5,187 nucleotides of DNA from a virus (lineage: Duplodnaviria; Heunggongvirae; Uroviricota; Caudoviricetes; Autographiviridae). The stretch lies in IMG/VR virus record IMGVR_UViG_2778261646_000012. One strand, given 5' to 3'. The position numbers and the translations under genes were made by a program. This document shows positions 109 through 804 of this stretch, in pieces; the stretch's first letter is position 1; the number at the start of each line of letters is the position of its first letter. The notes beneath the pieces are model-generated. The model saw only the letters and a program-made list of their open reading frames with translations. It searched no databases and was not told the origin of the DNA.

Positions 109-306
109 CTAACTTTGCAACAGTGCCACAGGGAGTGACTTAAGAAAGTTATACGCAGTAAAGCCAGCGGCAGTTTCCCCTCCCTGACTTGATATATGGA
201 TATTTAATTCAGTTGCGCCTTGAGATAATGCGGTGAGACAGTGGTTCTGAAGTTGCCCAACAGTGGCAGTGTTAACGGGGCATAAGAAATGAATTGTGTG
301 CAGCAT
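109..306 (-). CDS. Small 65-aa ORF resembling the N-terminal segment of ClpP/S14-family serine proteases; possibly a truncated remnant
   Basis: ATG at 306..304 overlaps the mnt stop by 1 nt (TAATG) and has AGGA (319..316) 9 nt upstream. The translation (IHISSQGGETAAGFTAYNF) aligns by eye to the ClpP stretch around the YINSPGG...AG..IYD motif. The ORF ends at TAG 111..109, before where a catalytic Ser (GxxSxG) would lie. Family assignment is by pattern recognition only. Confidence 0.4.
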   Translation of the reverse strand: MLHTIHFLCPVNTATVGQLQNHCLTALSQGATELNIHISSQGGETAAGFTAYNFLKSLPVALLQS

Positions 307-554
307 TATTTTTCATCCTTAGCATACATGGTCTTTAGCGTCTCAAGTAGCGCCTCTTTGAATTTATCAGCTTCTTGGTTAGCGAATCCTTCAAGTGAGC
401 GAGAGCCATCAAGATTATCAACATGTTTTTGAAGGATAAGCACGATCTCTGAGTTCATTGATCTGCCGTTTTTATCCGCTTCTTGCTGAATGCGTTTCTT
501 TAAATAGTCTGGAATCCTAATCCCCAATGGACTGATATCTCTTGCACCTTTCAT
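306..554 (-). CDS. mnt: Mnt-like ribbon-helix-helix repressor (82 aa)
   Basis: ATG at 554..552 is preceded by GGAGGAG (565..559). The product MKGARDISPLGIRIP...NGRSMNSEIV...TLKTMYAKDEK matches phage P22 Mnt in length (82 aa), in the N-terminal beta-strand/helix-A region and in the C-terminal TLKxxYxK tail. The longer track ORF (306..596) starts at TTG with no ribosome-binding site. Confidence 0.8.
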   Translation of the reverse strand: MKGARDISPLGIRIPDYLKKRIQQEADKNGRSMNSEIVLILQKHVDNLDGSRSLEGFANQEADKFKEALLETLKTMYAKDEK

Positions 555-579
555 TTCTCCTCCTGCACGCTGTGCGTAG

Positions 580-592
580 CTACACAGTGTAG
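580..592. promoter_or_regulatory. 13-bp perfect palindrome CTACAC-A-GTGTAG; candidate RHH operator upstream of mnt
   Basis: Perfect inverted repeat with a 1-bp centre, read directly from the sequence. It lies 26-38 bp upstream of the mnt start codon. A second short inverted repeat GCAC-gct-GTGC lies next to it at 565..575. Confidence 0.5.
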
Positions 593-603
593 GCAAAAAA
601 TTT

Positions 604-631
604 TTGACTTTAAATAAACACGGTGTAGTAT
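604..631 (+). promoter_or_regulatory. Candidate sigma70 promoter for arc-ant (Pant-like)
   Basis: -35 TTGACT (604..609), 16-bp spacer, -10 TAGTAT (626..631). Predicted transcription start is near 638, about 26 nt upstream of the arc start codon. Hexamers identified by eye; no experimental support. Confidence 0.45.
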
Positions 632-649
632 TTAGTTATCACGGTGTAG
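619..649. repeat. Two perfect 10-bp direct repeats CACGGTGTAG (619..628 and 640..649), 21 bp centre to centre; candidate operator half-sites
   Basis: Exact repeats seen in the sequence. Each contains a CAC-G-GTG palindromic core and shares the GTGTAG arm with the palindrome at 580..592. The first overlaps the candidate -10, the second the predicted transcription start region. Confidence 0.55.
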
Positions 650-663
650 CAAGTGAGGTGGAA

Positions 664-804
664 ATGAAAGTTAGAGACATCGCTCCATTAGGGATTCGTA
701 TCCCACCAGAGATTAAAGAAAAATTGAAGGAAAAGGCTAAGGAGGAGGGCAGGTCTTTAAATTCAGAAATAGTGAAGCGTCTTATTCGCAGCCTAAAAAG
801 TTGA
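664..804 (+). CDS. arc: Arc-like ribbon-helix-helix repressor (46 aa)
   Basis: ATG at 664 is preceded by GAGGTGG (655..661). The product [40 protein letters not shown] has the Arc/Mnt RHH signature (beta-strand, then helix, then GRSxNSE) and sits where arc sits in the P22 immI region, between mnt and ant. The longer track ORF from 604 starts at TTG. Confidence 0.75.

Follow-up and report, generated by a model that had tools for sequence, protein, structure and literature searches.

Do the two ribbon-helix-helix (RHH) repressors encoded divergently in the virus sequence IMGVR_UViG_2778261646_000012 recognise two different operators, as Mnt and Arc of phage P22 do, or do they share one DNA-reading surface and one operator? 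Arc and Mnt are the textbook models of beta-sheet DNA recognition and of the divergence of specificity between paralogues. The window, i.e. the whole stretch of DNA analysed (5,187 nt, one strand, 5′ to 3′, to which all positions refer), contains a mnt-like gene of 82 aa on the minus strand (306..554) and an arc-like gene of 46 aa on the plus strand (664..804), the latter being the first gene of the ant operon, with an intergenic, divergent control region of 109 nt between them (555..663). Both open reading frames (ORFs) have RefSeq coding sequences in Escherichia coli O7:K1 strain CE10, to which positions 300–860 were 99.8% identical (BLAST). An earlier note on this DNA had reported that the two proteins carry the identical strand PLGIRIP, and had taken this to imply that they read the same DNA element and to point to a recent duplication or gene conversion between the two genes. 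The shared strand was confirmed, and the reading of one common element was supported by sequence and comparative evidence; recent copying was not.

Both proteins belong to the Pfam Arc family (PF03869), with scores of 32.8 bits for the Mnt-like and 46.1 bits for the Arc-like protein against a gathering score of 20.4. The Mnt-like protein matched solved Mnt (1mnt_A) over residues 4–74 (phmmer, E = 4.8e-5), and the Arc-like protein matched both Arc and Mnt entries of the Protein Data Bank. AlphaFold2 (AF2) models placed helices at residues 16–28, 33–51 and 54–81 of the Mnt-like protein (predicted local distance difference test, pLDDT, 80.7) and at residues 15–27 and 35–45 of the Arc-like protein (pLDDT 62), and the top Foldseek matches were Arc–DNA cocrystals (probability 0.99). 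PF03869 repressors are characterised by an N-terminal strand followed by two helices and by G-R-S-x-N-S-E where helix B begins, and both traits were present. Residues 54–81 of the Mnt-like protein form a predicted C-terminal helix that aligned with the tetramerisation region of P22 Mnt (the alignment reaches residue 74); the Arc-like protein, at 46 aa, has no such helix.

The Mnt-like N-terminus, MKGARDISPLGIRIPDYL..., contains RDISPLGIRIP, i.e. the arm and beta-strand, encoded at 510..542 on the minus strand, with the PLGIRIP codons at 510–530. The corresponding arm and strand codons of the Arc-like protein lie at 673..705 on the plus strand, with PLGIRIP at 685–705. The register was fixed by aligning both proteins, with phmmer, to the solved structures of Mnt (1mnt) and Arc (1arq/1par). 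In this register, P, G and R of PLGIRIP align with the base-contacting residues defined by genetics and structure, H6/N8/R10 of Mnt and Q9/N11/R13 of Arc, L, I and I align with the core-facing F/L(F)/W(M) positions, and the R-D preceding the strand aligns with R2-D3 of Mnt. The P22 Mnt contacts Arg2, His6, Asn8 and Arg10 thus correspond to R5, P9, G11 and R13 here, with just the two arginines kept, and the P22 Arc contacts Gln9, Asn11 and Arg13 correspond to P8, G10 and R12, so that neither P22 contact set is present. No P-x-G-x-R ribbon was found by phmmer among the solved structures matched by either protein. A Mnt mutant of altered specificity with His6 replaced by Pro was reportedly described by Youderian and co-workers in 1983.

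Overall, the two proteins were identical at 21/41 positions, and a run of seven identical residues is by itself unremarkable (permutation P = 0.11). The identity was, however, concentrated in the arm and strand, with 10/11 positions identical there vs. 11/30 in the helices (Fisher P = 0.004), a contrast missing from the P22 pair (5/11 in arm and strand vs. 13/30 in the helices). The premise taken by the earlier note from P22, that the N-terminal residues set the operator specificity of Arc and Mnt, is right, as shown by swap experiments (Knight & Sauer 1989, cited in PMC3413123, PMC3325190). Under this P22 rule, an arm and strand common to both proteins would be expected to direct them to one box, and the control region held a single box type.

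Three copies of this box were recovered between 555 and 663 by repeat search and by comparison with relatives. Box 1 (580..592), CTACAC-A-GTGTAG, is a perfect 13-bp palindrome, box 2 (617..628), AACAC-G-GTGTAG, lies in the spacer of a promoter and overlaps its −10 element, and box 3 (638..649), ATCAC-G-GTGTAG, lies directly downstream of the −10. Their common core is TACAC-N-GTGTA, generalised as TACA-YNR-TGTA, and their start-to-start spacings are 36 bp and 21 bp. The left half of boxes 2 and 3 is degenerate, with CAC alone kept. Allowing at most one mismatch, CACRGTGTAG occurred 3 times within the 109 nt vs. 0.43 copies expected in the 5187 nt, and 0/200 shuffles reached the observed count. 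The promoter, a Pant-like sigma-70 promoter reading rightward (604..631, plus strand; TTGACT-16-TAGTAT), was the sole sigma-70-like promoter found in the control region by a scan that recovered the known Pant and Pmnt of P22; an equivalent was present in Edwardsiella phage Edno5, Xenorhabdus and Symbiopectobacterium. As for P22 Arc, the arc-like gene comes first in the ant operon, downstream of a promoter that here has box 2 in its spacer. Box 1 has its TGTA 16 nt before the −35 element of this promoter and is located approximately 27 nt from the mnt start codon.

Compared with the core of the P22 Mnt operator Omnt, TCCACGGTGGA, each real box matched at 8/11 positions, and the idealised box, TACACGGTGTA, matched at 9/11, differing at one symmetric position pair. 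No Arc-type TAGA/TCTA box was found in 555–663, and in place of two distinct operators, one per repressor, the window holds a single box type. The control region would accordingly be described as three putative Omnt-like boxes with no recognisable Oarc-like operator. A fourth site was sought in GCAC-GCT-GTGC (565–575) and GTAGCTAC (576–583) and rejected because no other part of the control region varies as much among close relatives. Between box 1 and the −35, the palindrome CAAAAAATTTTTG was likewise rejected as a general operator, being invariant in close relatives and missing from the wider clade.

Relatives of the module were collected by BLAST against phage and E. coli collections, pattern-based locus searches, protein searches and contig look-ups. 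At least 11 divergent mnt/arc(-ant) modules were recovered from Enterobacterales and Paraburkholderia, namely from E. coli (including the lambdoid siphophages PhiR12_1/4/5), Salmonella, Pluralibacter, Serratia, Edwardsiella phage Edno5, Erwinia phage Midgardsormr38, Xenorhabdus, Rosenbergiella, Symbiopectobacterium, the metagenomic phage L038 and Paraburkholderia. The motif I-(A/S/P/T)-P-x-G-(I/V/L)-R was present in both partners of every module recovered. In the lineages tabulated, I, P, G and R were kept by both partners (7/7), and the remaining modules followed the same pattern. The core-facing residues varied, with Y/F/M/L and M/I/V in the Mnt-like and T/V/L and F/M/I/L in the Arc-like proteins, as illustrated, even among close relatives of the window, by the paired strands of Salmonella (PLGLRVP and PLGIRIP), Pluralibacter (PMGIRVP and PLGIRLP) and Serratia (PMGIRVP and PLGVRIP). 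What is conserved is thus the predicted DNA-facing P-G-R surface and not the seven-residue peptide, a pattern that argues for selection rather than recent copying. In one further locus (IMGVR_UViG_2675903606_000016), the Arc-like protein carries PLGIHIP, in which the invariant arginine is replaced by histidine; this variant may be a loss-of-function allele.

The boxes were conserved along with the strand. Each of nine divergent control regions held two to three copies of TACANNNTGTA with no more than one mismatch (P ≤ 0.005 per region), and the 6-mers shared by at least six of the nine regions were mainly words of the box (CTACAC/GTGTAG, ACTACA, TACACA, GATGTA) and of the −35 (TTTGAC); one further shared 6-mer, ATGAAG/CTTCAT, belonged to neither. 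The positions of the boxes were also kept, since in divergent lineages the TGTA of box 1 lay 15–16 nt before TTGAC and that of box 2 lay 20–21 nt after it, and box 1 was found at the equivalent position in 8/9 lineages. A comparison of five close relatives showed no change from box 1 up to and including the −10, variation (G/C/A) at the centre of boxes 2 and 3 and strong variability in the mnt leader (555–578); invariant boxes with a varying central base are the pattern expected of a dyad-symmetric operator. In the sister modules of phiv205-1, EC.P3 and 611R6, which serve as a natural control, the Mnt C-terminus was near-identical and the N-terminal heads were others; there the Mnt strand differed from the Arc strand, and the intergenic sequences differed too. 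Protein motif and box hence travel together across at least 11 lineages. On the strength of the shared arm and strand, the single box type and this co-occurrence, it is very probable that one DNA element is read by both proteins, as the earlier note had proposed.

We consider it reasonably probable that the window carries a P22-type immI module of a distinct and widespread lineage, in which both repressors would bind the same boxes and would differ by oligomerisation, cooperativity and timing. From the sequences, their register, the copies and positions of the boxes and their conservation, we infer binding, stoichiometry and regulatory outcome as follows. Both RHH repressors would carry one head, R-D-I-(S/A)-P-x-G-x-R, and would bind the same three boxes, each of which would hold one dimer or, by the example of the 17-bp P22 Omnt, two. 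Boxes 2 and 3 would cover the −10/start region, and their occupancy would block the Pant-like promoter, so that either protein could shut off arc-ant. In the lysogen, repression of this promoter would fall to the Mnt-like protein, the Arc-like protein, itself a product of the Pant-like promoter, would provide delayed negative feedback after infection, and the small antisense RNA sar would add antisense control of ant. Box 1, located between the mnt start codon and the −35 of Pant, would control mnt. Functionally, the two proteins would be set apart by oligomeric state and avidity, given the C-terminal helix of the Mnt-like protein and its absence from the Arc-like protein, by cooperativity on full vs. 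half-degenerate boxes and tolerance of boxes 2 and 3, and by the time of expression, not by the reading of different sequences.

Several observations weigh against this scheme. Since only CAC is kept in the left half of boxes 2 and 3, the two proteins could prefer different boxes. Proline and glycine are unable to hydrogen-bond bases, and recognition may rest on the arginine, the N-terminal arm and DNA shape. The extreme N-termini differ, with MKGA- in the Mnt-like and MKV- in the Arc-like protein, as do Ser8 and Ala7 just before the strand. In Arc/Mnt hybrids, single substitutions are reported to have changed specificity drastically (Raumann et al. 1995, cited in PMC3413123). The AF2 models are monomers, with strand pairing and DNA contacts outside their reach, and that of the Arc-like protein is of low confidence. 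The arrangement of box 3 is not constant across lineages: it lay at +21 in Symbiopectobacterium, as in the window type, and was replaced in the Edno5 type by an extra TGTA at +11 and a palindrome at +27. The promoter scan found no leftward mnt promoter in the window, and candidates in relatives were inconsistent (TACACA-18-TATCAT in Xenorhabdus, at a P22-like position; TTGACT-18-AATACT in Symbiopectobacterium; none in Edno5). The searchable literature yielded neither binding nor expression data on any phage of the lineage.

Some of these observations feed the main rival of the common-operator scheme, namely that the strand is shared and the proteins still discriminate, with arm length, Ser8 vs. 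Ala7 and scaffold geometry directing them to different subsets of the boxes. The Mnt-like protein could, for example, occupy box 1 or box 3 and the Arc-like protein box 2, which would retain the P22 logic with related, non-equivalent operators. Boxes 2 and 3 indeed lie at the positions of P22 Oarc and Omnt, and the difference between the perfect palindrome of box 1 and the two half-degenerate boxes, the divergent extreme N-termini and the specificity switches of the hybrids would all fit. However, the arm itself is identical in both partners of several modules (RDIAP in Edno5, Rosenbergiella and L038; RDISP in Salmonella), and no box-specific flanking motif was conserved across lineages. We regard such discrimination within the box set as rather unlikely.

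The central base of box 1 (position 586 of the window; equivalent positions in the loci L010, L012, L014, L015, L016, L038 and L050) was A in 8/9 lineages, and the centre of boxes 2 and 3 was G, C or A. An A-centred box 1 yields the −10-like hexamer TACAYT on the mnt strand, and box 1 may double as the −10 of a mnt promoter or overlap that promoter; TAAAGT, which adjoins the −35 of Pant, would be another hypothetical element of the same promoter. Being the best palindrome of the three, located approximately 27 nt from the mnt start in 8/9 lineages and providing TACAYT on the mnt strand, box 1 is suggested to control mnt transcription.

On another view, the identity would be a by-product of a recent gene conversion or duplication and would carry no functional meaning. 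An imperfect inverted repeat does join the 5′ ends of the two genes (520–542 vs. 673–695, 83%; 548–557 vs. 661–670, 100%), the core-facing residues are identical too in the window, and strand identity was slightly higher within than between phages (7.9 vs. 7.2 of 11; permutation P = 0.005). The nucleotide sequences, however, do not look recently copied. The two 33-nt strand-coding segments of the window differ at 7 nt, and the codons of identical residues differ in 4/10 cases in the strand (gat/gac, ttg/tta, agg/cgt, att/atc) vs. 7/11 in the helices (Fisher P = 0.39), i.e. to a similar extent as in the rest of the gene. Outside the strand, orthologues cluster: Mnt-like proteins shared on average 17/30 positions with one another, Arc-like proteins 20.3/30, and Mnt-like with Arc-like proteins 13.3/30, partners from the same phage (13.3/30) being no closer than partners from different phages. 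The duplication hence predates the spread of the lineage across Enterobacterales. Together with the synonymous divergence of the strand, this clustering does not support the recent duplication or conversion suggested by the earlier note, and the P-G-R surface is common to all lineages, with close relatives differing at core-facing positions. A recent conversion is largely refuted, and an identity of this origin without functional meaning is highly improbable; an old, short converted tract in the E. coli/Salmonella sub-lineage is possible, and the within-phage covariation of the strand could stem either from such a tract or from co-selection. A better description of the shared head is that of an old lineage trait that appears to have been selected.

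A tentative extension of this view, which we consider possible and somewhat doubtful, is that the lineage preserves the state after the Arc/Mnt duplication and before heads and operators diverged as in P22, i.e. paralogues without sequence discrimination whose roles are set only by oligomerisation, cooperativity and timing. At the start codons of the two genes, the surrounding 10 nt (GAAATGAAAG, 548–557 and 661–670) are identical in inverted orientation; as this was not seen in other lineages, it is probably due to chance or to a local event.

The core-facing residues of the strand covary within phages (in the window, L/L and I/I), which also bears on a different possible function of the strand, namely that it serves mixed RHH dimers or oligomers of the Arc-like and Mnt-like proteins on DNA, through which the Arc-like protein would modulate Mnt. 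The strands of the two subunits pair in RHH dimers, and engineered Arc variants can fold preferentially as heterodimers (PMC3413123). The core-facing residues nevertheless differ between the partners in most lineages (Y/T, M/F), the helices that form most of the dimer interface are only approximately 40% identical, and P22 offers no precedent, which leaves mixed oligomers quite improbable.

The surrounding genes identify the window as the secondary-immunity end, immI or "ant moron", of a P22/CUS-3-like prophage, with the gene content and order of P22 immI (background in PMC2629481): here mnt-like, arc-like, sar RNA and ant, followed by an endosialidase tailspike gene. A sar antisense RNA was detected on the minus strand (799..864; Rfam RF00262, 67.6 bits vs. 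a gathering score of 43), with a terminator stem at 803–834 (terminator scan) that overlaps the 3′ end of the arc-like gene; its presence indicates that the antisense layer of ant control of P22 is conserved here. The regulated target, the antirepressor gene ant (866..1795, plus strand), encodes KilA-N and P22_AR_C domains (Pfam) and is annotated in RefSeq as 'phage antirepressor Ant'. In the tailspike of 981 aa, Pfam places endosialidase domains after a P22 head-binding domain; the tailspike ORF is intact in the window (1896–4841), and the CE10 copy (locus L001, 4597–6561) is frameshifted according to RefSeq. The CE10 prophage is truncated upstream by an IS3 element, and its RefSeq order reads ClpP-family protease (minus strand), 'Arc family DNA-binding protein', 'YlcI/YnfO family protein', Ant and tailspike. 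In CUS-3 (locus L005, CP000711, within the 'bsq2 boundary sequence'), an unannotated Arc-family ORF of 46 aa, MKVKTLRMPEKLEKILEEKAKEECRSFSAEVIKRVLDSLKREGVMV, was found upstream of ant (Pfam Arc, 33.8 bits); the epsilon34 genome paper has CUS-3 apparently without arc.

The ClpP-family protease gene (178 aa; window 1–306, minus strand; also L001 2471–3007 and L049 306–842) starts 1 nt inside the mnt-like stop, the two overlapping by this 1 nt, which makes its co-transcription with mnt in the lysogen probable. This gene accompanies the module in the E. coli, Salmonella, phiv205-1, EC.P3 and PhiR12 phages, and not in Pluralibacter or Serratia. In Escherichia phage PhiR12_1 (locus L002, 39120–41132), one of the lambdoid siphophages, a 95% identical clpP-mnt-arc-ant cassette lies between the tail tip genes L and K. 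Given this insertion among siphophage tail genes, the cassette appears to move as a unit between phage morphotypes.

If the common-operator scheme is true, the lineage would provide a natural and widespread case of two paralogues that have kept one reading head and one operator box, in which the regulatory difference attainable through oligomerisation and site geometry, without sequence discrimination, could be gauged. The P-x-G-x-R ribbon would recognise an 11–13 bp palindrome with two of its three contact positions lacking hydrogen-bonding side chains. For annotation, proteins so far labelled only 'Arc family' or 'YlcI/YnfO family' would gain a role and their unannotated operators a position, in a mobile 'ant moron' that pathogenic E. 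coli carries in prophages of both the podovirus-like and the lambdoid siphovirus kind. No published account of the lineage, or of operators shared by Arc and Mnt, was found in the searchable literature.

Among known systems, P22 immI is the closest. Gene order and orientation, the sar RNA, the position of arc at the head of the ant operon and the C-terminal helix of Mnt, predicted here, are the same, as is a Pant-like promoter with putative operators in the spacer/−10 (P22 Oarc) and just downstream (P22 Omnt); the box core CAC-N-GTG, flanked by T.../...A, also resembles that of P22 Omnt. In contrast, P22 has two operators and two heads (R2/H6/N8/R10 in Mnt; Q9/N11/R13 in Arc), whereas the window has one box type and one P-G-R head, an additional box between the −35 of Pant and the mnt start where P22 has none, and an Arc-like protein of 46 aa rather than the 53 aa of P22 Arc. 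The Arc/Mnt hybrids (Knight & Sauer 1989; Raumann, Knight & Sauer 1995) are reported to place specificity in the N-terminal residues, independent of the scaffold. They were, however, engineered and tested on P22 operators, whereas the pair in the window, which resembles a naturally occurring instance of both scaffolds bearing one head, is conserved and comes with a matching array of putative operators.

A comparable arrangement was found in Salmonella phage Emek (locus L009, 734–826), in which Mnt (PQFNVRMP) and Arc (PQFNLRWP) share the DNA-facing residues Q, N and R. The spacer of its Pant contains TAGTAGTAC, which repeats the left half of TAGTAC-G-GTACTA, the Omnt-like palindrome. Emek differs in its P22-type Q-N-R head, its TAG(T)A boxes and its differing arms, and represents a second, independent case in which head and box are shared. 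In phage lambda, CI and Cro have opposite developmental roles and act on the same sites, OR1–OR3, between divergent promoters, the outcome being decided by affinity order and cooperativity. CI and Cro differ from the present pair in being helix-turn-helix proteins with different reading helices and in controlling the primary immunity switch, not an antirepressor. By analogy, the regulatory logic proposed here would nonetheless resemble that of CI and Cro on OR1–3 more than that of Arc and Mnt in P22.

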